Source of the DNA: Thermoproteota archaeon | GTDB taxonomy: Archaea > Korarchaeota > Korarchaeia > Korarchaeales > Korarchaeaceae | Assembly: GCA_027491435.1 (NCBI GenBank) | Contig: JAOZFG010000040.1 | Coordinates: forward strand, 1-40,769 | Length of the DNA: 40,769 bases | Direction of reading: 5' to 3' | Shown here: positions 1 through 25,840 of the stretch, piece after piece | Numbering within the stretch: the first letter of the stretch is position 1 | Layout: the number at the start of each line of letters is the position of its first letter | Position numbers and translations under genes: made by a program | The notes under the pieces: model-generated | Told to the model about the DNA's origin: nothing | The model's input: only the letters and a program-made list of their open reading frames with translations | Database searches by the model: none

Positions 1-293
1 CCTGTCTCAGGGTCCAGCGCCACCCCAGTAAACCTTACAGCGAAGTTCACAACTGTCTCGTCCACGACAGCCACTCCCTTGCTTTTAACAGCCATGATCT
101 CGCTCATCCCGCCTAAACCTGTACCTTCCTTACCTTCATGGCCCCTAACGCCTAGCAAGCTAAGCTGGCTGACACGCCTGGCAGGCCCGAAAGTAAGCAG
201 GGCGTAAGCTACTACCAGCAGGGGGGTCCGCTCTCTAACGGAGTTGAAGGTTCTCTTTCTCCATATGACATCAGCAACCCTGCTTATAACCAC
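1..293 (-). pseudogene. IS6-family transposase, N-terminal part, probably degraded
   Basis: The frame is open to the window edge, but expected residues (HE-VRK, KVYW) appear in shifted frames, suggesting compensating indels. Not in the ORF track. Confidence 0.55.
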
Positions 294-311
294 AGCTTAA
301 GTTGACAACAT
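1..311 (-). mobile_element. Degenerate IS6-family insertion sequence, left end (truncated by window edge)
   Basis: The minus-strand frame from GTG at 293 reads ...RERTPLLVVAYALLTFGPARRVSQLSLLGVRGHE...VAVVDETVVNFAVRFTGVALDPET. This resembles the N-terminal HTH and first DDE aspartate region (V-DET...A-D-ET) of archaeal IS6 transposases. The minus-strand TGTTGTCAACTTAAG at about 311-297 resembles archaeal IS6 terminal repeats as I recall them. Confidence 0.65.
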
Positions 312-321
312 AAGGCACCAA

Positions 322-375
322 AATTTCATAATCTAAAGGGGATTATTGAAATTCAAGGACATAGTATTTAAATAC
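322..375 (+). promoter_or_regulatory. Inverted repeat (putative operator) plus TATA box upstream of ORF 410
   Basis: AATTTCATAATC (322-333) pairs with GATTATTGAAATT (341-353) with one bulge. The palindromic GTATTTAAATAC (364-375) contains the TATA-like TTTAAATA about 35 nt before ATG 410. Confidence 0.5.
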
Positions 376-409
376 CCTCCTTGAGGTCGCACGTGATGGG
401 GACGCGGAC

Positions 410-763
410 ATGAAGTTGAAAGATTTATCTATTAAGCTAATATCGGTTATAATTGCGCTCTTGATGGCGATCTCTCCTTTACCCTTAGCAGCGTATGCCG
501 GGAGTGCGGGGGCTGGCATAAAGCCTGATGTAATTAGGAGTTGCAGCAGGGTTTACATGTACGTTGGCCCTGGGGAATACGAGTGGGAGGTTATATACGT
601 AGGTCATGTGGACTCTTGGTCTGTCAGATTAGTTTATAATTCACACCCGTATTTCCTGTGGTCAGCCTTCTACTCAAATGGATACATATATATAATCGTT
701 CATAATTTACACCGATATAGTGGGCTATCGCTGGTCTTCGAAGTTTGCTGGACCATCTACTGA
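410..763 (+). CDS. Small secreted protein (signal peptide, Tyr/Trp-rich, two Cys); candidate antimicrobial or secreted peptide
   Basis: Basic N-terminus, hydrophobic core and AYA cleavage motif at aa 28-30. The mature 87 aa contain 11 Tyr, 4 Trp and Cys45/Cys113. Upstream TATA box; first gene of the ABC cassette. Confidence 0.75.
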   Translation: MKLKDLSIKLISVIIALLMAISPLPLAAYAGSAGAGIKPDVIRSCSRVYMYVGPGEYEWEVIYVGHVDSWSVRLVYNSHPYFLWSAFYSNGYIYIIVHNLHRYSGLSLVFEVCWTIY

Positions 764-772
764 TCATTATCG

Positions 773-782
773 TTTTATTTTT
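773..782 (+). terminator. T-rich tract between the secreted-protein gene and the permease (possible partial terminator)
   Basis: TTTTATTTTT shortly after stop 763, followed by an SD-like AGGAGG for ORF 802. Confidence 0.35.
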
Positions 783-801
783 AAAGGAGGGATAGCGGTC
801 G

Positions 802-2055
802 ATGAATTATAGAATATTTATAACGGACTCGAAGGTCTACAATATATCGTTAATTATAGCTCTAACCCTCATATACACCCTCTTCATGTTTGGGGTTTAT
901 ATAGTTCAATCTACTCAATTTATTAGCGAGCAACTGGAAAAAACTACTAAATATAGCTTCATAATGGTTCACTATATACCACCATCTGAGTACCAGGGGC
1001 CTGAATCCGCAGGGACTAAACTAATGGAGCAAATTTACGAAACCATAAATTATCTGAAAGGTCATGGAATAAAGGTATATGAAACTAAGTTTTATCCAGA
1101 TAAACTTCCCCCAGAGTATGCCTGTAACTACATGGAGGAAATGATAGACAGGTCCATGAAGAGCAAAGAGGCGCAAGAGAATTCAGGGGTAAGGGAGAAC
1201 CTAGAGTTGATAAAGGAGATAGCTTGTCTCCAAGGTTATTCTTTAGAACTAATAGCCATGACTGACGAATTTAACTGGAATTATCTCTCCTTAATTTCTG
1301 GAAGGTATCCGGAGAAGAGGGGCGAGTGTATAATTCCGTTGGGACTATACTATATGATTAACATGGGAACTGAGTTGAGGTTGGGGGACGAACTAAGGCT
1401 TACCAAGTACAGATGCAGGGTAGTTGGCATATACCTTCCGATAGAACCGACAACCCCTAGTAAGCTCGTCATAGTAAAGGGAACTCCGATGAGAGCAGGC
1501 AATGCGTTATACGATGAGTCCCCTGTAACAATCTACTGGGTGGACCTGTCAAAGAACAGGTCTGAAGTCCTCCTCAGAGTTTCCTCCTTATCCTTATCAG
1601 GGCATCCCGGATTGCCCGCAAGCGTTAGATTAGAGTTTGAGAGGTTCCAAGAGTTATCCGCTAATACCTCTTACCTCCTGGTGATTTTCTCAGCATTAGC
1701 TCTAATCCTGCTCACCTTAGTAGAGATGAAAGTGGAAGTTAGGAAGAAGGGCATTATCATATCCCAGGGCGTACCTACCGGCTTCCTAATGAGAGTTGAC
1801 TTCTTAAGAGAGGTCATGCTGCTACCCTCCTTACTTCTGGGATTCTTGACAGTTCATCAACTCTACCTGGATATGGTAAAGCTATTCTTCTCCAGTTACT
1901 CCATCACCAGTTTCCTAGAGCCCTACTTCTACTACAGCAGACCCTCACTTAACATCCTGATTTTGAGCCTGTTGTTGCCCCTCTCTAGGCTTCTAGCCTT
2001 GTTAGCCTACTGGAGGTGGTTGAATGGCAGGCAAGTCGGTAGTATTATCGGTTGA
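802..2055 (+). CDS. ABC transporter permease, MacB/FtsX (type VII)-like
   Basis: One N-terminal TM, a large extracellular domain with the GRYP-x4-EC-I motif typical of the MacB periplasmic core, and three C-terminal TMs. Adjacent to an ABC ATPase. Confidence 0.75.
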   Translation: MNYRIFITDSKVYNISLIIALTLIYTLFMFGVYIVQSTQFISEQLEKTTKYSFIMVHYIPPSEYQGPESAGTKLMEQIYETINYLKGHGIKVYETKFYPDKLPPEYACNYMEEMIDRSMKSKEAQENSGVRENLELIKEIACLQGYSLELIAMTDEFNWNYLSLISGRYPEKRGECIIPLGLYYMINMGTELRLGDELRLTKYRCRVVGIYLPIEPTTPSKLVIVKGTPMRAGNALYDESPVTIYWVDLSKNRSEVLLRVSSLSLSGHPGLPASVRLEFERFQELSANTSYLLVIFSALALILLTLVEMKVEVRKKGIIISQGVPTGFLMRVDFLREVMLLPSLLLGFLTVHQLYLDMVKLFFSSYSITSFLEPYFYYSRPSLNILILSLLLPLSRLLALLAYWRWLNGRQVGSIIG

Positions 2056-2665
2056 TGGGATAAGCAAGAGGTATAGAGACCTCGTCTTCTCCAACTTCAC
2101 CTGGGAATTTCCCAATTCGGGCATGTTCGTGATCAAGGGGCCTAACGGATCGGGCAAGTCCACCCTGCTCAGGGTGCTGGCCTGCATGGAGCCCCCGGAC
2201 TCCGGAGAGGTAAGGCTGATGGGCGAGGTTGTGAGGGATTACAGGGCCAAGGTGTACCATAAATACGCTAGGGTGATAAGCTTCAGCTTTCAAGAACCAG
2301 CTCTCCTCCCCATAAGCGTTGAGAGGAACCTGCAGGTTCCTACTTTAGTTGATGAGGGTAGGTTAGAAGAGGTTATAGATGCGTTAGGCCTCAGAAAACT
2401 TCTTAAGAGTAAGGCCACCAAGATAAGTGGAGGAGAGAAGAAAAGGACTGATTTGGCTAGGGCTTTATCGAGGAAGACGCCTGCTCTATTAGCAGATGAG
2501 CCTCTATCCTTCCTAGATCCCGAGTACGTGGAGGTCGTCACCTCTTTGCTGAGGGAGGAGGCCAAGCAGAGGTTGGTAATAGCCACCACAACGGGCTCAG
2601 ATCAGCTCACGGATGCTGCAGATACGGTTATAGATATAATGGACTACAAAAGGGCTAGACAATGA
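2024..2665 (+). CDS. ABC transporter ATP-binding protein
   Basis: Walker A GPNGSGKST, Q-loop FQE, signature ISGGEKKR, Walker B LLADEP. The H-loop His is absent (IATTTG). Confidence 0.92.
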   Translation: MAGKSVVLSVDGISKRYRDLVFSNFTWEFPNSGMFVIKGPNGSGKSTLLRVLACMEPPDSGEVRLMGEVVRDYRAKVYHKYARVISFSFQEPALLPISVERNLQVPTLVDEGRLEEVIDALGLRKLLKSKATKISGGEKKRTDLARALSRKTPALLADEPLSFLDPEYVEVVTSLLREEAKQRLVIATTTGSDQLTDAADTVIDIMDYKRARQ

Positions 2666-3588
2666 AGCATAAGACCCTGATGATTGTGGCCGACTTCCTG
2701 ATAACCTTTTTCTTGCTCACTACCCTGTGGGCCACCTACTCCATGACCCACGCCTTGAAGGGGAGGATAGGAAAGGTCAACTACTTTGCTGCCAGGAACC
2801 CAGTGCCTGCCGAGGGGCTCTATAGGGTCAACGTAACCACGTGCGGTAACCTGACGGTCGCATACTACTTGGAGCTTCCAGAGCCGGCCATGCCCTTGCT
2901 ACTCAAGGGCCGCTACCCCGATAAAGGGGAGTGCGTAGTCACACCTCTCCTTTATTCTCAAATCAAGGGCGACAAGTTGAACTTGGGCAACCTGACTTGT
3001 GAGGTATCTGGAGTAGTATCTATGTGGAGGGCAGTTAACGCCTCTAGGCTAGTTATGGTCAGGTCTAGGGGTTCTGGCTTTCCTATCTACGTTATTAGGC
3101 TGGATCCTCAACAGATTCAAGTCATCGAGTCTCATCCTGAGCTCGTCAGCCTAGCCCTTCCCCCTACAATATCAGCGATTGCTGTGGAGAGTTCCTTGGG
3201 GATGCTTAACTCTCTGACGACAGCTCTCACGGCGATCTCTCTGGTCTCCTCCGTCTTCCTATCTTTTATAGTCATCAAACACGAAGAGTTGGGTAAGTGG
3301 GCCCTAAAAACTGCTATGGGAAAGTCCTGGTGGTGGACTTCCCTTCAGGACGTAACTGTGTGGGCTTTAATTCTCTCCTTAACATCTCTAGCAGCCTATC
3401 AGCTGACTGCTACCGCAGGAAAAGGATTTGCTGAGCTCCTGCTAGGGTTGAGCTTGTCCGATGTGTGGACTCATGTCCCCCTCCTTGAGCTGGCCTTACA
3501 GGTCTTGACCTTCCCGGTGGCCTACCTTACAGTAGGGGCCGTAGCCTCAACTGTTGGAGGCCTTCTCCCCCTTAGCAGATCCCTTTAA
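2662..3588 (+). CDS. Second ABC permease, MacB/FtsX-like
   Basis: ATGA overlap with the ATPase stop. N-terminal TM, KGRYPDKGECVV motif, and C-terminal TMs with a LKTAMG coupling-helix-like motif. Confidence 0.75.
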   Translation: MKHKTLMIVADFLITFFLLTTLWATYSMTHALKGRIGKVNYFAARNPVPAEGLYRVNVTTCGNLTVAYYLELPEPAMPLLLKGRYPDKGECVVTPLLYSQIKGDKLNLGNLTCEVSGVVSMWRAVNASRLVMVRSRGSGFPIYVIRLDPQQIQVIESHPELVSLALPPTISAIAVESSLGMLNSLTTALTAISLVSSVFLSFIVIKHEELGKWALKTAMGKSWWWTSLQDVTVWALILSLTSLAAYQLTATAGKGFAELLLGLSLSDVWTHVPLLELALQVLTFPVAYLTVGAVASTVGGLLPLSRSL

Positions 3589-4143
3589 CTTCATCCTAGT
3601 GAAAGCGCTGTAGGATCTCTCTCCCACAGTTATATAACTTAGCAGGACTATCAGAAATAGCCCTAGCTCCAACCTATCAGTTAAGCAGGCCAAGGAAGCT
3701 ATTATCATCCTCTCCGGCCTCCCCGCCAAGCTGAACTCCGTCCCCTTAACCCCTAAGGACTCGGCCTTGGCCCTGACGTAGCTAACCATCATGGAGGAGT
3801 GTATTGCTAGGGCCGACATCAGGAAGTCCTCGCCAGGGAAGCCCATCCCCAAAAGAATCAAACCATCAGAAACCCTGTCAAAGACCGAGTCCAGGAAAGA
3901 CCCCTTCTCACTTGCCGAATTGGTAGCCCTAGCTATTGCACCGTCGATCATGTCAAGAAAGCCTGAAGCTAGTATAAGGAAGCCGCTGACCCTAACGTAT
4001 CCCTTGTAAAGGGTGTAGAACGTGAAAGCCGATAGAAAGAGGCCCATTACAGATACGTGATCCGCTCTAAGTCCGAGGTTGGCTAGCTTGAGTCCTATGC
4101 TCTCAGTTATTCCTGAAACTCTCGACCTGGCCCTCTCCAACAT
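3547..4143 (-). CDS. pgsA: CDP-alcohol phosphatidyltransferase (archaetidylinositol-phosphate synthase-like)
   Basis: Signature DMIDGAIARA...G.FLDSVFDRVSD, plus SYVRAKAESLG and GRPER. Confidence 0.9.
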   Translation of the reverse strand: MLERARSRVSGITESIGLKLANLGLRADHVSVMGLFLSAFTFYTLYKGYVRVSGFLILASGFLDMIDGAIARATNSASEKGSFLDSVFDRVSDGLILLGMGFPGEDFLMSALAIHSSMMVSYVRAKAESLGVKGTEFSLAGRPERMIIASLACLTDRLELGLFLIVLLSYITVGERSYSAFTRMKLKGSAKGEKASNS

Positions 4144-4194
4144 TTTACTACCATAGGGTCATAGGTTATCTAAAAAAGGTTAGTCCTAATCTAG

Positions 4195-4926
4195 ATGCCG
4201 GACGTGGTGGTCATACTGGTAGAGCCCGAGAACGCAGATAACGTTGGAATGATAGCCAGGGCAATGAAGAACTTCGGGTTTCGAAGGTTGAGGATAGTTA
4301 GGCCCATGTTCGACTCCTTTGACAGGGCCATGGCCGCAGCCATGAGGGCCAAGGACGTGCTTGAAGGGGCTGAAATATTCCTCTACTTGGATGAGGCCTT
4401 TGAGGGAATAGATGTGGTTATAGGAACCACCGCCAGGATAAGCAAGTACAACGTGGACCGTAGGGCCATACCCCTCAGAACCCTAGTAGACTCACTAAAG
4501 TGGGACACCGTATACGGGTTGGTGATGGGAAGGGAGTCCACAGGGCTTACCAGCGAAGAGCTCGCCAAGTGTGACGTGGTAGTCACCATACCCACCAGCT
4601 CAGAGTACCCCGCCCTCAACCTGGCCAACGCCACAGCTATCATGCTATACGAGTTCTACATGAAGTTCAACAAGGTCGAGCTCTGGGAGAGGCCGGTCAG
4701 CAGAAGGGTCAGGGAGATGACGCTCAACTATATATATAAGGTAGTGGGGGACCTGGATATACCGGAGCACAAGAAGAAGGGGGGAATGGCCCTAATAAGG
4801 AGGATCTTAGAGAGGGCCTACCCCTGTGGAGTGGGAGAGGGAGAAGCCCTCTACCTGCTGGAGATAGTGAAGAAGGTGTATGAAAGGTTAAAAGGTGGTG
4901 AAGATGTCCCTGAGGCCAGCCCGTAA
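4195..4926 (+). CDS. trmJ: tRNA 2'-O-methyltransferase, SPOUT TrmJ/LasT family
   Basis: LVEP...NVGMIARAMKNFG, GRESTGL, IPT...YPALNLA. Confidence 0.88.
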   Translation: MPDVVVILVEPENADNVGMIARAMKNFGFRRLRIVRPMFDSFDRAMAAAMRAKDVLEGAEIFLYLDEAFEGIDVVIGTTARISKYNVDRRAIPLRTLVDSLKWDTVYGLVMGRESTGLTSEELAKCDVVVTIPTSSEYPALNLANATAIMLYEFYMKFNKVELWERPVSRRVREMTLNYIYKVVGDLDIPEHKKKGGMALIRRILERAYPCGVGEGEALYLLEIVKKVYERLKGGEDVPEASP

Positions 4927-17012: not shown

Positions 17013-18071
17013 CTTTATAGTTGTAAAGAACGATATGACTATCATCACGAAGGTAATCCCGACGTTCATGAGGAAGCTTAGAAGACCAATGCTCCCCTCC
17101 ATGTATAGGGCTAGGGAGTAAAGTATCGCCCAGAGGGCAAGCACCAAAGTCGCCCCGAATATCTTCTCGAACGCGTTAACCTTGTTCTCAGCTATACTTT
17201 CTATGGCCCCCCCTAGGAACATGACTATGAGGGATAGGGCAGTAAGCCAGCCCACCTCTATCATGACTCTAGCTACCATTATCTCCACGGGGTAGTTCTG
17301 AGCCGTGAGGACTAAGGTCCTTGAAAAGCCCAGGTAGAAGGATATTACCATTAGGATTATACCCAGCATTAGGGAGTAGAGCCCCAACCTACTCCCGAAG
17401 TACTGCACCCCCTCTTTTACTTTGGATCCTATCCCGAAGGCCCTATCTAGCAAGACCATTCCGGCTACTATGCCGGCCCCTACATAGAGGTACCTTTGAA
17501 GGCCCATCAATAAGAACAGGGCTGAAAGTATGAGCAGGATTCCTGGGATGCCCAAGACCAGGGCTCTAGAGGTGGGGCTGCTCAGGAGCTTCTCCAGGTA
17601 CCTCTTTATCAGTATGTAGGTGTGCTCCAGTTCCCTGCTCTGTTGGACTATTACCCTTCTAACCCCCATTATCTCAGCGTAGTTGTTGAGAAGTGGTATC
17701 ACCAGCTCGTCATCGGCCCCATCAGACACAAGGATTATCTTAGTGGGTTTAAAGGACTTGGCAACCTGGGAAAGTTGCCTCGCTATCTCTATATCGGCAA
17801 GGTTTTCGTTCTCCGAATGGCCAGTTATCGTGACTACCTCGACCTCGGCATCCCCGTCGAAGATGCTCTTAACCTCGTCGTAAACCTTAACCGCCCCGAA
17901 TATGGCGTTCGCATCCGCCTCAGTAGGATCAGCCAGTGCTAGCTTGCTTGCCGCCTCTAGGTTCCTCTCCCTTCCAACAACTGGGCCTTTTATCCCCGTC
18001 TTCACGCCCAGATCGTCGTCTCTGTCGACGCATACCACCAAGATCCTTTCTTTTTCTTCAAGATCGGGCAT
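16977..18071 (-). CDS. DUF373-family membrane protein
   Basis: VCVDRDDDLG, DPTEADANAIF, VSDGADDE, VQQS...E.TY, then multiple TMs. Confidence 0.85.
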   Translation of the reverse strand: MPDLEEKERILVVCVDRDDDLGVKTGIKGPVVGRERNLEAASKLALADPTEADANAIFGAVKVYDEVKSIFDGDAEVEVVTITGHSENENLADIEIARQLSQVAKSFKPTKIILVSDGADDELVIPLLNNYAEIMGVRRVIVQQSRELEHTYILIKRYLEKLLSSPTSRALVLGIPGILLILSALFLLMGLQRYLYVGAGIVAGMVLLDRAFGIGSKVKEGVQYFGSRLGLYSLMLGIILMVISFYLGFSRTLVLTAQNYPVEIMVARVMIEVGWLTALSLIVMFLGGAIESIAENKVNAFEKIFGATLVLALWAILYSLALYMEGSIGLLSFLMNVGITFVMIVISFFTTIKLGEIFRGRGWK

Positions 18072-18105
18072 CCCAAACTCTTAACCGTCTTAAAATAAAA
18101 AGGGT

Positions 18106-19011
18106 TCAGGGACTTTTGATCTCCTCCAGGAGGCCTACCTCGTAAAGTATCCTCAGTTCCTCTATGGAAAGCTTCTCCCCGGCCTTATACTTCTTGAGGG
18201 CCTCCTCGGCTAATTTCTTCTTTAACTTCTCTTCTACCTCTCTACTAGTTGCAACCATTGTCTCAAACTTCTTTCTTATCTGCTCCTGAAGCTCCTTCAC
18301 TTGACCTCTCAGTTCCTCAAGCTCCTTCTTCATCTCATCTACCTTGGCGCTTCTCTCCTGAATCTCCGAGTTTATTCCCTCTATTTCGGATCTCACCCTA
18401 TCGAGCTCCTCCTTCAGAGCGGATATCTTGTTGTAGATCTCGCTTAGCCTCTCCCTTATCTCCCCTATCTTTTCCCCAGAATCCCTGACGAAAAACCTCC
18501 ATTTCTCCACCTCGGCCATTACCTCTATGAGCTTTCTCTTTATTGCCTTAGCCCTGTTTAGGTTTTGGAGTAGAGCCTCGTAGTGACTTATCTGCATCAC
18601 TATTTCCCTCTCCTGATCTTTGTTTAGGGGAGCCGTCTCTATCCTCCTCTCCAGCCTGGCTATCCTCTTCCTAATGACCCTTTCGGGCAACCCTACTGAC
18701 TCAACTAGGAGTTCATACTCGTTCCTCAACTTGTTAGCCTCTTCCTTGGCCTTTCTGAAGTTCTCCAAGGCCTTCTTCCTTTCCTCCCTGAGCTTATTCA
18801 ACTCGCTCTGTAGCTTTCTTTTCTCATCTATTATTTGCCTGAGCTCTTCCCTCTTATTTCTCACGTATTCTATTAACTCAGATTTCCTGTTCCTGAGTTC
18901 TCTGAGCTCCTCTATTAGCTTTCTCCGTTGCTCACGAAGCTCATTCAACTTCCTCTTAAGCTCCCTTTCTTTCTGTCTAAGATCATTTATGGTACTCTCC
19001 GTTGCGGACAT
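18106..19011 (-). CDS. Archaeal coiled-coil protein (COG1340-like)
   Basis: E/K/R-rich heptads, central LERRIET..L....E..IV..I, C-terminal K.GEKLSIEEL. Confidence 0.75.
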   Translation of the reverse strand: MSATESTINDLRQKERELKRKLNELREQRRKLIEELRELRNRKSELIEYVRNKREELRQIIDEKRKLQSELNKLREERKKALENFRKAKEEANKLRNEYELLVESVGLPERVIRKRIARLERRIETAPLNKDQEREIVMQISHYEALLQNLNRAKAIKRKLIEVMAEVEKWRFFVRDSGEKIGEIRERLSEIYNKISALKEELDRVRSEIEGINSEIQERSAKVDEMKKELEELRGQVKELQEQIRKKFETMVATSREVEEKLKKKLAEEALKKYKAGEKLSIEELRILYEVGLLEEIKSP

Positions 19012-20305: not shown

Positions 20306-21023
20306 CGGAGGCCACCTTCTCAGGGTCGGGCACCCCATACAACGAGAGGAACGTCCTGGCCCTAGGTACCGCTACGGTCCTGCCGCCGGCCACCCCTACC
20401 TCAAACCTGTGAACCTTGATGGAGGTGCCAGCCAAGGCTAGATCCTGACCTACACCAAGGCCTGACGCCGTTAGGGGTATGACGTGTCCGAACCCGAAGA
20501 GCCTTCCTAACAAGGGTATCTCAACCACCAAATCGTTTATCTTAGACACGGGAAGCTCCCTGGACTTCACGGATAAGAACCTTAGCTCCGTGATTATCCT
20601 CTTGTTGGTAACGTAGTAGTGGTGGGCCCTCCTGTAAAGATCCGTGGTGGAGAGGCCTATCAAAGCCGTCATGATTTCAGGAATCCAGAGGGGATAGCCC
20701 ATCCGATCGAGGATCGCTGAGGCCCCTGCTAGGGCCAGCGAGATAAAGGCCCACCTCCAAGATATCCTGAGCAGCGAGTAGGCAGTTAGGGGTACTATCA
20801 GGGCCAGGGCTAAGGCCAATAGCTTGAGGTAGGGGCCCGAGATCAGTTTGTTCAGTAATGGTATATGAGATTCATCGTAAATAAAGCCAAAATAAAGCCC
20901 GACCAGCATGATGTAAGAGAAGACCAGGTAAAGCGACGCGAAGGCCAGCGGGTGAGGCCTCAGGTCAAGCAAAAGCTCTTCATCCTTTCCTAGCTTCATT
21001 GAGCTAACTCGGAGACTACCCAA
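20286..21023 (-). CDS. Membrane protein with bacterial PH (bPH_2) domain
   Basis: N-terminal L.L.LRPHP, TMs, YYVTNKRII, LLGRLFGFG.V, YGVPDP. Confidence 0.75.
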   Translation of the reverse strand: MGSLRVSSMKLGKDEELLLDLRPHPLAFASLYLVFSYIMLVGLYFGFIYDESHIPLLNKLISGPYLKLLALALALIVPLTAYSLLRISWRWAFISLALAGASAILDRMGYPLWIPEIMTALIGLSTTDLYRRAHHYYVTNKRIITELRFLSVKSRELPVSKINDLVVEIPLLGRLFGFGHVIPLTASGLGVGQDLALAGTSIKVHRFEVGVAGGRTVAVPRARTFLSLYGVPDPEKVASVISGLF

Positions 21024-21059
21024 ATAAAGTTATCTAGATACGGAGTGCGGATGAAATGG

Positions 21060-21078
21060 TCACATTTATTAAACGTGA
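21060..21078 (+). promoter_or_regulatory. Near-perfect palindrome overlapping the TATA box of the V4R gene
   Basis: TCACATTTATTAAACGTGA has 8 of 9 arm pairs matching. Its TTTATTAA core lies 22-29 nt before ATG 21094, and there is no SD (leaderless). Confidence 0.45.
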
Positions 21079-21093
21079 GATCACAATAACATT

Positions 21094-21597
21094 ATGCGGG
21101 AGCTGAAGGAGATATACATAAAGGATGGTGGCCTGATCAGTTTTAAGAGGGATGTTGACGTCATACTGTTGACCCATAAGACGTTTGGTTCCTTCATCAA
21201 GGCAATTTATGAGATAATAGGTAAGGCCGGTTACAAGACGACTACTTACATGCAGGGTCGACTATCCTCCCTAGGGGTTAGTGAATTCATAGAGAAGCAT
21301 TACGGTGGATTCCAGGGGATTCCCGAGCTCTACAGAGAAATCGGCTGGGGAGAGATAAAGATAGTGAAAGATGGAGATAACATGGTGTTTGAGTGGTCTA
21401 ATAATCCTGTAGCCCTGGCTTTAAAGGCTAAGGGCGTAAATAGCGATGAACCCATGTGCTACTTCACAGCTGGCTACGTACACGGTTTGGTTGAGGGCCT
21501 TTTGGGGGGTAAAAAAGTCAAGAGGGTTGTGGAGGAGACGTGCGTAGTGAAGGGAGACGACAAGTGCACCTTCAGGGTCGAGTTTGAGGAGGGTTAG
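21094..21597 (+). CDS. Stand-alone V4R-domain protein
   Basis: GWG, PMCYFTAGYV.G, EETCVVKGDDKCTF. Confidence 0.85.
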   Translation: MRELKEIYIKDGGLISFKRDVDVILLTHKTFGSFIKAIYEIIGKAGYKTTTYMQGRLSSLGVSEFIEKHYGGFQGIPELYREIGWGEIKIVKDGDNMVFEWSNNPVALALKAKGVNSDEPMCYFTAGYVHGLVEGLLGGKKVKRVVEETCVVKGDDKCTFRVEFEEG

Positions 21598-23712: not shown

Positions 23713-24412
23713 CTAGCTCGGCCTTTAGCCTCCTCAACTCCTCCTCCACGGAGCTCTCTATCTTTATTTTGTCCAGCTCCCTCTCTATCTCATCCTTCTC
23801 CTCAGGCTCTAGTACGTCTAAAGCTCCTCCTGTGGCTAGAAGTTCATCTAGAGCTGCTGCCCTGGCCTTCATCTCCTCTATCTTGCTCTCTGCCCTCTCT
23901 ATAGCCATTCCAGCCGAAGCCATGTCATCTCCTAGGCCTGTGATCATCTCCTGAACCTCAACCTGCGCCTTTGAGACCTCGTATTCCGCCTTTAACTGCT
24001 CCTTTTTAGCCTTGAAGAGGTCGACCTTAGTCTTCAGCTTATCCCTTATCTCCTTGAGCTTCTCCTCATCCTCTTTCATGTCAGCTATCTTCTTTTCGAG
24101 GACCTCTTTCTGGTTCATTAGGACGTGCTTTCTCTCAAGAGCCTTTCTAGCTAAGTCTTCCCTTCCCATCTTAAGCGCTTGTTTAGCTTTTTCCTCAAGA
24201 TCACTTATCTTCTCATTTATTCTCTCCAGCTCGAACTCTAGCTTCTTCCTAGCGGCGATAGCTCTAGCTAGGGACATGTCAACGTTGTGAAGCTGTTGAA
24301 CCAGTTTATCATAGGCGTAGTCGAGCTGCTCCCGGGGATCTTCAAAGCTTTCCAAAAGTTTGTTGAGTTTGGCCTCTATGCTGGCCTTTAGCCTGTCCCA
24401 AAAACCAGTCAT
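23705..24412 (-). CDS. pspA: PspA/IM30 (Vipp1; ESCRT-III superfamily) protein
   Basis: Amphipathic MTGFWDRLK, EDPREQL, GREDLARKAL, KIEEMKARAAALDEL, VEEELRRLKAEL. Confidence 0.9.
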   Translation of the reverse strand: MTGFWDRLKASIEAKLNKLLESFEDPREQLDYAYDKLVQQLHNVDMSLARAIAARKKLEFELERINEKISDLEEKAKQALKMGREDLARKALERKHVLMNQKEVLEKKIADMKEDEEKLKEIRDKLKTKVDLFKAKKEQLKAEYEVSKAQVEVQEMITGLGDDMASAGMAIERAESKIEEMKARAAALDELLATGGALDVLEPEEKDEIERELDKIKIESSVEEELRRLKAELGE

Positions 24413-24472
24413 CGCATCACCTGCTAAATTGTCCAATCTTCGATTAAAAACCTCTGCCTATTTTTAGGTCTG

Positions 24473-25840
24473 TTACCTAAGCCTGGTGCCTAGCTCTACC
24501 ATCCTCTTCACCACCGATGAGGCTCTCTCTGGGGTTGAGTATACTGGAATCCCACCCTTCTCAAGCCTGAGCAAGGATTCCTTAACCACCTCGTTGGTGG
24601 GAACTGCTACGGCTACTACAGGTATGTCTATCCTGCTCTTCAACTCAAAAAGCGCCTTTTCAACCTCGCCGGGCCTCATACCGGGAACTCCGAACAGGGG
24701 TATCAGGTAGAGCACGTCAAACTCGCCGCTCTCAGCGAAGGCTAGGCCAGTCTCCAGGAATTGTTCTGGAGTAGAATCTCCAGTCAAGTCCGTCGGGTTT
24801 CCAACCGGGTAGTAAGGAGGGAGCATGGCTCTTAACTTCTCCTCGAGCTCCCTCGAAGGTTTGGGCACCCTTAACCCCTTAGCCTCTAGGGAGTCTACCG
24901 CTATTATGCCGAAGCCCCCTCCATTTGTTATCACGCCTACTCTATCGCCCTTAGGTAGAGGTTGGCTTGCTAGGGCTATAGGCACGTCCACGAACTCCTC
25001 CAGGGTTTCCACAACCACGGCCCCTCCCTGCCTGGCTGCAGCTTCAAATACCCTGCTGCTTCCCGCTATGGAGCCCGTGTGGCTCCTGACGACCCTGTCC
25101 CCTGACTGCGTTCTCCCTCCCTTGAGCACGACTACCGGCTTCCTTCTAGTCGCCTCCTTCAGCGTCTCTAGGAACCTCCGCCCGTCGTCAACTCCTTCTA
25201 TGTATGCGGCTATCACTGAGGTGTCTTCGTCCTCTGCCAGATAACTTATGAGGTCGGACTCGTTAACGTCCGCCTTGTTTCCATAGCTGATGAACTTGCT
25301 TATGCCCCTCCCCTGCTGGTATATCCAAGTGAGTAGGAAGCTCCCCAAACTCCCGCTCTGAGTTATTATAGAGACCTTCCCAGGATGAGGTCTGGGTATC
25401 ATCTCCTCAGGGAGGAACAGCGTGTCCACCCTGTTCTTCGGATCGTATACTCCTAGGCAGTTGGGGCCTATAACCCTGATCCCGTACTCCTTAGATATCC
25501 TCTTGATCTCAAGCTCGGGCTCAACATTACCTATCTCAGAGAAGCCCCCTGACACAACTATGGCCGCTTTTACCCCCTTCTTAGCAGCGTTCTCGAGTGC
25601 TCTAGGAGCCAGGTCGGCCCTCAAAACTATGACGGCCATATCCACCTGGTCAGGTATATCCTCAATCGAAGGATAGCTCTTCAGGCCCATTACTTCCTCA
25701 GCCTTCGGGTTTACCGGGTAAACCCTGCCGGGATAGCCTATCTCGATCAGCCTCCTGAGCACAACGTTGCCTATCTTCTGAGGGTCTCTGGAGGCCCCGA
25801 TAACTGCCACAGAGCTTGGTTTGAAGAAGTAGTCTAGCAT
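24473..25840 (-). CDS. acdA: Acetate/acyl-CoA ligase (ADP-forming) alpha subunit
   Basis: P.SVAVIGAS, GPNCLG, QSG, SHTGS phospho-His, NGGG.G, NP.DLTG. Confidence 0.9.
   Translation of the reverse strand: MLDYFFKPSSVAVIGASRDPQKIGNVVLRRLIEIGYPGRVYPVNPKAEEVMGLKSYPSIEDIPDQVDMAVIVLRADLAPRALENAAKKGVKAAIVVSGGFSEIGNVEPELEIKRISKEYGIRVIGPNCLGVYDPKNRVDTLFLPEEMIPRPHPGKVSIITQSGSLGSFLLTWIYQQGRGISKFISYGNKADVNESDLISYLAEDEDTSVIAAYIEGVDDGRRFLETLKEATRRKPVVVLKGGRTQSGDRVVRSHTGSIAGSSRVFEAAARQGGAVVVETLEEFVDVPIALASQPLPKGDRVGVITNGGGFGIIAVDSLEAKGLRVPKPSRELEEKLRAMLPPYYPVGNPTDLTGDSTPEQFLETGLAFAESGEFDVLYLIPLFGVPGMRPGEVEKALFELKSRIDIPVVAVAVPTNEVVKESLLRLEKGGIPVYSTPERASSVVKRMVELGTRLR

Follow-up and report, generated by a model that had tools for sequence, protein, structure and literature searches.

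A candidate mobile cassette of Korarchaeaceae that couples a small Sec-exported protein to a diverged type VII ABC machine

The left end of contig JAOZFG010000040.1 (C2) of a korarchaeal assembly (Thermoproteota archaeon, Korarchaeaceae, GCA_027491435.1, here G000; 1.64 Mb, 99.5% complete) carries four adjacent genes, which encode a small secreted protein, S, two permeases, P1 and P2, and an ATP-binding cassette (ABC) ATPase, A. The window, i.e. the whole stretch of DNA that was analysed, runs from the first base of C2 onward and comprises 40,769 nucleotides. The four genes are best explained as a mobile, genus-restricted cassette that couples Sec-exported S to a heteromeric type VII ABC machine, P1-P2-A. 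In bacteria, machines of this type such as MacB, LolCDE, FtsEX and YbbAP have been studied in depth, but to our knowledge those of archaea are essentially uncharacterised. The cassette joins one of them in compact form to a small partner of no known family, whose model is of high confidence.

All four genes are located on the plus strand, in agreement with the first-pass annotation of this DNA: S (410-763; 117-aa precursor, signal peptide encoded by 410-499), P1 (802-2055; a diverged 417-aa permease of the FtsX/MacB type), A (2024-2665; 213 aa, PF00005) and P2 (2662-3588; a second permease of 308 aa with a shorter outer domain than P1). The gene for A sits between the permease genes and its ends overlap with both, as its start lies 32 nt inside the end of P1 and its stop shares 4 nt with the start of P2.

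The N-terminus of S is basic, residues 10-28 form a hydrophobic core, and a cleavage site of the A-Y-A|G kind follows residue 30, which together make up a Sec-type signal peptide as read from the sequence. The mature part comprises 87 residues with 11 Tyr, 4 Trp, 4 His, Cys45 and Cys113, exactly as counted before, and its Tyr content is 12.6% as compared to 3.6% in a proxy of the proteome. A pilin-type (class III) signal peptide was considered and rejected, since the hydrophobic core has no G/A cleavage motif in front of it, and so was a lipoprotein, since a lipobox is lacking; the first Cys is located 15 residues past the predicted cleavage site. S has no family match in Pfam-A or NCBIfam (hmmscan, E ≤ 1), bacteriocin families included, and its relatives are one metagenome protein at 93% identity and proteins of the same genus alone. 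Judged by these searches, S is a new, genus-restricted family. A match to a known non-toxic family, on which the first-pass annotation had made its view of S depend, was not found either (Pfam, NCBIfam; no Foldseek match at E ≤ 0.001). Across ten family members the best-conserved element is (I/V/F)-(E/K)-P-(D/E)-(V/T)-(I/M)-x-x-C directly after the signal peptide, and one Trp, one Tyr and the C-terminal Cys are conserved as well; the more distant members are 21-26% identical to S of the window.

In the AlphaFold2 model of S, calculated from a six-sequence alignment, the signal helix leads over a disordered linker into a six-stranded β-sandwich, with a predicted local distance difference test score (pLDDT) of about 90 over residues 41-117. 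Foldseek gave nothing at E ≤ 0.001, neither in the PDB (best match CBM3 at 0.07) nor in BFVD (best matches phage tail/spike proteins at about 4e-3), and a search of the ESM Atlas yielded no usable match. In VIA-align the matches at the top are H-type lectins and the tips of phage tailspikes and of pyocin fibres (Z 6.1-7.9), and the top matches also include a Thermococcus protease jelly-roll and GOLD domains (Z 6.6-7.6). The best structural neighbours of S are H-type lectins, i.e. similar-sized six-stranded β-sandwiches such as the C-terminal domain of discoidin (discoidin II: Z 7.9, root mean square deviation 4.0, 81 residues aligned) and Helix pomatia agglutinin (snail agglutinins: Z 6.7-6.9). 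All these values are below Z 8, under which, according to the caution line of VIA-align, a match may reflect no more than a common arrangement, as is typical of models without a clear relative. S has no Pfam match to a lectin.

Disulfide-linked subunits of Ena fibres are also among the fold matches of S (Z 5.7-6.2), which bears on a reading akin to the filament/surface-subunit alternative of the first-pass annotation, namely that S builds up a filament or matrix on the cell surface, with the ABC machine aiding its assembly or release. A protein that is small, rich in aromatic residues and β-strands, carries a Cys near each end and has a conserved motif at the N-terminus of its mature part would suit such a role, and the T-tract behind the gene (see below) suggests that S is produced in excess. 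The Ena matches, however, are weaker than those to lectins and jelly rolls, all of them being generic, the S monomer is modelled with high confidence as a closed sandwich, the signal peptide is not of the pilin type, and the flanks that were read contain no recognisable assembly gene. We thus regard a filament subunit as unlikely.

Neither P1 nor P2 matches any model of Pfam or NCBIfam at E ≤ 1. Their assignment as diverged type VII ABC permeases of the MacB/FtsX kind is supported by topology, sub-threshold Pfam matches, profile links and a fold search, all of which agree with their initial description as MacB/FtsX-like. According to hydropathy, P1 and P2 are built alike, with one N-terminal transmembrane segment, a large outer domain and C-terminal transmembrane segments (P1: 17-35, 289-307, 338-356 and 385-403, outer domain ~50-272). 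PF02687 (FtsX) yields in-register matches in four of eight further members of the P family (E 3.9e-4 to 0.56), which with 20.9, 17.4, 15.3 and 10.7 bits stay below the gathering cut-off of 25.5, and a profile of the P family matches two canonical permeases from the phylum, G049:C99 (3.7e-9) and G031:C264 (2.3e-7), both of which pass PF02687 and PF12704. The AlphaFold2 model of P1, which is of medium confidence (pLDDT 68), consists of long helices (2-49 and 273-321) around a mixed α/β domain, and its Foldseek matches with E ≤ 0.001 are, ten out of ten, type VII ABC transporters (YbbP, Spr0694-0695, MacB). YbbP is the best match (1.3e-6), with LolCDE, BceAB, HrtBA and FtsEX coming next, the TM-scores being low (0.23-0.42).

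P1 and P2 have a GRYP-x-GEC / C-x-V-x-G region in common, and all 15 aligned members of the P family contain an invariant Cys in G-x-Y-P...G-E-C and, within the outer domain, a strand with the sequence C-x-V-V-G. P1, searched exhaustively against 1.84 billion representative proteins, retrieved only itself and one 149-aa fragment, whereas homologs of P2 are P0004 (76% identity) and P0005 (57%). A profile of the permease alignment gave chance-level rows only against PDB sequences (E > 0.9), and a search for loci in metagenome and genome contigs based on the P2 alignment found nothing. Phylogeny does not define P1 and P2 classes, as a tree built from 18 permeases leaves its deep forks unresolved and has terminal branches about 1.2 changes per site long.

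A matches PF00005 at 5e-26, confirming it as an ABC ATPase. In NCBIfam the row that ranks first is TIGR03608 (L_ocin_972_ABC) at 106.9 bits, followed by FtsE at 94.7 bits; LolD and DevA rank lower among the top rows. For A, PADLOC returned generic ATPase rows only, and for the other three proteins it returned none. The ATPases of the cassette family have retained Walker A, Q-loop, signature and Walker B, but the His of the H-loop is replaced in all four that were compared, the sequence being TTG in the window copy (2024-2665) and ATE in the other three (L029:7715-8362, L033:1019-1648 and L030:5801-6442), whereas a canonical MacB-type ATPase of the phylum keeps it (ATH). G000 encodes only two ATPases of the cassette type, which are 56% identical to each other.

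Evidence for a coupling of S to the permeases comes from the other loci of the family, counted across 43 genomes of the phylum, many of them incomplete. G000 itself holds four paralogous loci, i.e. the one in the window (C2), one on C18, in which S-P1 is divergent from A-P2, one on C30 with the order S-P-P and no ATPase gene in the assembled flank, and one on C20, in which S is followed by a 285-aa P protein, again without an ATPase gene. Besides these four S genes, two are present in G005 and one each in G007, G002 and G020, and G001 has one doubtful match. In all nine clear S genes, distributed over five genomes, the gene directly after S encodes a P-type outer domain; three of these S-P pairs overlap, and the layouts are both collinear and divergent. 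Such regularity, often with stop/start overlap, makes it very improbable that S lies next to the ABC genes by chance, with no functional relation to them. The first-pass annotation had asked whether a small secreted gene always precedes these permeases; viewed from the permeases, nine of the 13 assessable P loci carry S (a copy of G010 at a contig start was excluded). P loci without S are three in G011 and an outer-domain-only gene in G007 (C31), and by analogy they resemble orphan immunity genes.

The partner of S can be much smaller than a permease. In G002 (C4, L063:1450-2616) and G020 (C43, L062:1468-2592) S is followed by a protein of 242-247 aa that consists of one N-terminal transmembrane segment and a P-type outer domain, without the FtsX helices and without an ATPase gene, the pair being flanked by a MobB-like gene and an arcadin-1 gene (PF18653 at 1.6e-9). 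Outer-domain-only proteins occur in four of the 21 genomes of the genus. As in these two loci the outer domain alone accompanies S, the constant partner of S is the outer domain, and the natural variants, i.e. those with ATPase, those without ATPase and those with the outer domain only, point to this domain as the site of contact. Loss can be seen as well: G007:C127 (L064:1438-3191) is a decaying copy, in which S is truncated C-terminally and P1 is split into three open reading frames (ORFs), as compared to the intact G005:C219. These sequence comparisons show that S forms, together with the diverged outer domain of the P proteins, a new pair of families that is limited to the genus and tightly coupled genetically. 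Literature searches of limited extent returned no description of the S/P family or of an archaeal locus of the lactococcin 972 (Lcn972) kind; the module in PMC8416519 is a different one, without ABC genes.

The cassette is an accessory, multi-copy and recombining element, and its insertion is probable (low GC, patchy occurrence, junction at the EF-2 gene), in line with the horizontal acquisition suggested in the first-pass annotation. In a protein search P1 was present in one of 41 genomes, and cassette-family members of any kind occur in seven of the 21 species of the genus. The first part of the cassette is indeed AT-richer: S and P1 together have a GC content of 0.429 as compared to a genome mean of 0.518, with values of ≤0.43 in just 1.9% of all 1-kb windows, the GC content at third codon positions is also low (0.49-0.52 versus 0.65 ± 0.07), and all four S genes of G000 have a GC content of 0.42-0.44. 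Between the C2 and C20 loci the promoter region, a short leader, the codons of the signal peptide and the first ~14 mature codons are near-identical, and then similarity ends abruptly, suggesting that either this 5' module or the cargo was exchanged. At the DNA level the conserved module spans 339-545 on the plus strand of the window, with its C20 counterpart at about 9990-10200 of L004 on the minus strand, and at the protein level the two S proteins are 87% identical over residues 6-44 only, the mature parts and the permeases otherwise being very different. The alignment points to this module as a unit of recombination or gene conversion.

The cassette is followed on the minus strand by a core gene, the archaetidylinositol phosphate synthase gene (3547-4143; NF040950 at 2.1e-49), which marks its boundary, and it is preceded by the end portion of a multi-copy repeat (1-310), inside which both contig and window begin. 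The repeat has 30 matches in G000, most of them at contig ends. In all four relatives checked, the EF-2 gene directly neighbours the archaetidylinositol phosphate synthase-TrmJ-L10e block in convergent orientation, without a cassette in between, whereas in G000 EF-2 is found at the end of contig C16, the last 91 nt of which are identical to window positions 1-91. Because of this adjacency in the relatives and this identity, repeat and cassette (about 4.3 kb) most likely interrupt the EF-2/lipid synthase junction. Contig C28 ends in the same 91 nt, and the join of C16 to C2 is therefore unproven. The IS6 remnant initially assigned to this flank had to be abandoned as unproven: PF13610 (IS6, DDE_Tnp_IS240) is absent from the assembly at E ≤ 0.01, with positive controls, although repeats may be unassembled, no transposase ORF is present in the internal repeat copies, and the 97-aa ORF at 3-293 has no Pfam match.

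Upstream of S, a TATA-like box, TTTAAATA, is located at 367-374, about 36-43 nt 5' of the ATG, within the palindrome GTATTTAAATAC (364-375, plus strand, as read from the sequence), which is conserved in the C20 locus, and we infer this box to be the putative promoter of S. The box thus stands, but the inverted repeat described together with it (321-353, arms of 13 nt at 321-333 and 341-353) is imperfect and weak, since its arms are 77% complementary and the right arm alone is kept in C20. The T-tract reported after S, TTTTATTTTT, is present 3' of the stop codon (773-782, plus strand), with GGAGG at 786-790 and the ATG of P1 at 802 coming after it, and it is possibly a partial archaeal terminator.

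Based on these findings we tentatively favour, at a confidence that falls somewhat short of even, that S serves the ABC machine as a cognate ligand at its outer face, where S would be both released and kept off the producing cell, as a lectin-like antagonist with its own immunity. S would be transcribed from the TATA-box promoter, exported by the Sec system and cleaved after Ala30, and the T-tract 3' of its stop codon would reduce read-through into P1-A-P2. Outside the membrane, S may then bind as cognate ligand to the outer domain of a P-family protein, and ATP-driven mechanotransmission in the ABC complex may free S from the membrane surface. Dislodging S in this way would accomplish release and protection of the producer at the same time. 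S might finally act as a lectin-like antagonistic, perhaps toxic, protein, with immunity conferred by the P proteins or by stand-alone anchored outer domains, as in lactococcin-972-type loci. MacAB-TolC exports enterotoxin STII, and the Aat system exports dispersin. Reasons to prefer the antagonist reading are the mobility of the cassette and its swapping of modules, the P loci without S, the partners that consist of an anchored outer domain only, and the parallel to lactococcin 972. A further-reaching version, which we consider possible but doubtful, is that S and its relatives constitute a new class of Sec-exported archaeal antimicrobials, which would be lectin-like and bind an envelope glycan or lipid-linked glycan of competitors, with the diverged ABC machines or bare anchored outer domains serving as immunity and with mobile cassettes carrying swappable promoter-plus-leader modules. 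If S is antagonistic, the cassette would represent a new archaeal weapon-and-immunity system beyond halophiles and Sulfolobales.

Lcn972 is a sandwich of two sheets and six strands. Like the Lcn972 family, S has a Sec signal peptide (by reading) and a small β-sandwich as mature part (in the model); no Lcn972 entry is among the fold matches of S listed by PDB Foldseek and VIA-align. Lcn972-like bacteriocins are Sec-secreted β-sandwiches encoded by operons of three genes, and a single pneumococcal genome can contain as many as five such loci (bioRxiv 10.1101/2024.10.01.616058); in both lcn972-orf2-orf3 and pneumococcal scbABC the gene of a small Sec-dependent β-sandwich comes first, followed by those of a membrane component and an ABC ATPase (PMC4055356, bioRxiv 10.1101/2024.10.01.616058). 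The gene order of the cassette is parallel to this, there are likewise several loci per genome, and the best NCBIfam row of A is the Lcn972-type subfamily. Unlike these loci, the cassette contains two permeases, S is without a match to a family model, A is far under the subfamily cut-off, and the host is an archaeon that lacks the lipid II target. The lactococcin 972-type layout, which had been recognised in the first-pass annotation, is a parallel in gene order.

Several observations weigh against S being an antagonist. S matches no lactococcin 972 model (Pfam, NCBIfam, E ≤ 1), A reaches 107 bits where the TIGR03608 cut-off is 254.85 and scores nearly as well with FtsE, and the known target of Lcn972, lipid II, is a component of the bacterial wall (bioRxiv 10.1101/2024.10.01.616058). 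Every fold match of S is below the VIA-align caution line of Z 8. The two close orthologs of S (93% identity) vary in the mature part by three conservative changes only, and estimates of dN/dS, i.e. the ratio of nonsynonymous to synonymous substitution rates, give no sign of diversifying selection: for the G005/G007 pair they are 0.42 (S) and 0.61 (P1), values that are uninformative as the G007 copy is broken, and for G002/G020 the synonymous sites are saturated. Two of the four G000 loci have no ATPase gene in the assembled sequence. Moreover, a secreted β-sandwich (CARDB) protein is encoded directly upstream of the permease in all four canonical loci of the phylum that were inspected, so that the S-permease layout is not specific to bacteriocins, does not prove antagonism and may instead reflect a built-in partner subunit.

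One of these canonical MacB modules is found in G000 itself on the minus strand of C16 (130154-133599; L080:3655-7100). Its three genes overlap and encode an ATPase, a 519-aa CARDB protein that has a signal peptide and is anchored at its C-terminus, and a MacB permease that passes Pfam. Judged by the four loci inspected, a secreted β-sandwich gene ahead of an FtsX permease gene is a general archaeal theme. As in the cassette, the secreted β-sandwich gene is directly upstream of and coupled to the permease gene. The partner, in contrast to S, is large, CARDB-positive and anchored, the canonical permeases pass the Pfam cut-offs, and the C16 module lies among ordinary chromosomal genes, with no repeat noted beside it.

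In analogy to these modules, S could belong to the ABC machine as a built-in partner outside the cytoplasm, i.e. a shrunken, unanchored counterpart of the CARDB protein that is moved or activated at the envelope by the ATPase cycle, e.g. for binding to S-layer glycans. The lectin-like fold neighbours of S would suit this role, and so would the constant position of S beside a P-type outer domain, be it part of a transporter or not. Type VII ABC transporters are known to work with outer partners (PMC12646458, PMC7668044), and in YbbAP-TesA and FtsEX-EnvC/PcsB the secreted partner docks on the outer domain in a way to which the pairing of S with P can be likened. For YbbAP the likeness extends to the fold, as YbbP is the best structural match of P1. 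The tesA gene is oriented divergently from ybbA-ybbP, and divergent gene orders recur in the C18 and G005:C221 loci. S, on the other hand, falls outside all known families and has neither a hydrolase domain nor a coiled coil, and the bacterial systems have no counterpart of the outer-domain-only variants. With the CARDB partner S has no sequence or profile similarity (S family versus the 519-aa protein in hhalign: probability 0.3), it has no C-terminal anchor, and loci that are multi-copy, patchy, low in GC and flanked by repeats, together with the P loci of G011 that lack S, suit a housekeeping role poorly. We therefore see a built-in partner as a possibility of rather low probability. If it applies, the cassette would show how fast envelope ABC modules of archaea diverge, multiply and move.

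LolCDE resembles the cassette in having two distinct FtsX-type permeases and one ATPase gene, chains of LolC/LolE are among the fold matches of P1 (E 2.8e-3 to 0.15), and LolCDE works on a protein at the membrane's outer face, to which the proposed handling of S can be likened. Differences are that S has no lipobox, a LolA-like gene is missing and there is no similarity detectable by Pfam. The heteromeric layout with two permeases and the LolCDE chains among the matches, together with the GOLD-domain folds among the top matches of S, could also mean that S is a soluble carrier or acceptor of a hydrophobic compound which is extracted from the membrane by the ABC machine, comparable to LolCDE-LolA or YbbAP-TesA. 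However, the strong divergence of S among paralogs, with distant members as low as 21-26% identity, speaks against one conserved small ligand, and S is also paired with outer-domain-only proteins, which are incapable of extraction. We consider such a carrier improbable, marginally more so than a filament subunit.

As to the surroundings of the cassette, P2 and the archaetidylinositol phosphate synthase gene are convergent, and their 3' ends overlap by 42 nt (3547-3588). An Rfam scan of window positions 1-4200 returned a single chance-level row. The repeat at the left end continues beyond the window start, as the flanks of its C16 and C32 copies have in common an ORF that begins with MSLPKEGAGAMPG. 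Just downstream of the S-P locus of C20, on the opposite strand, lies a small, putatively PIN-like ORF (L004:8381-8665, plus strand). Other patches of low GC content (0.45-0.47) are present in the window at 18001-19000, 21001-21500 and 24001-24500, the first of which shows strong negative GC and AT skew.

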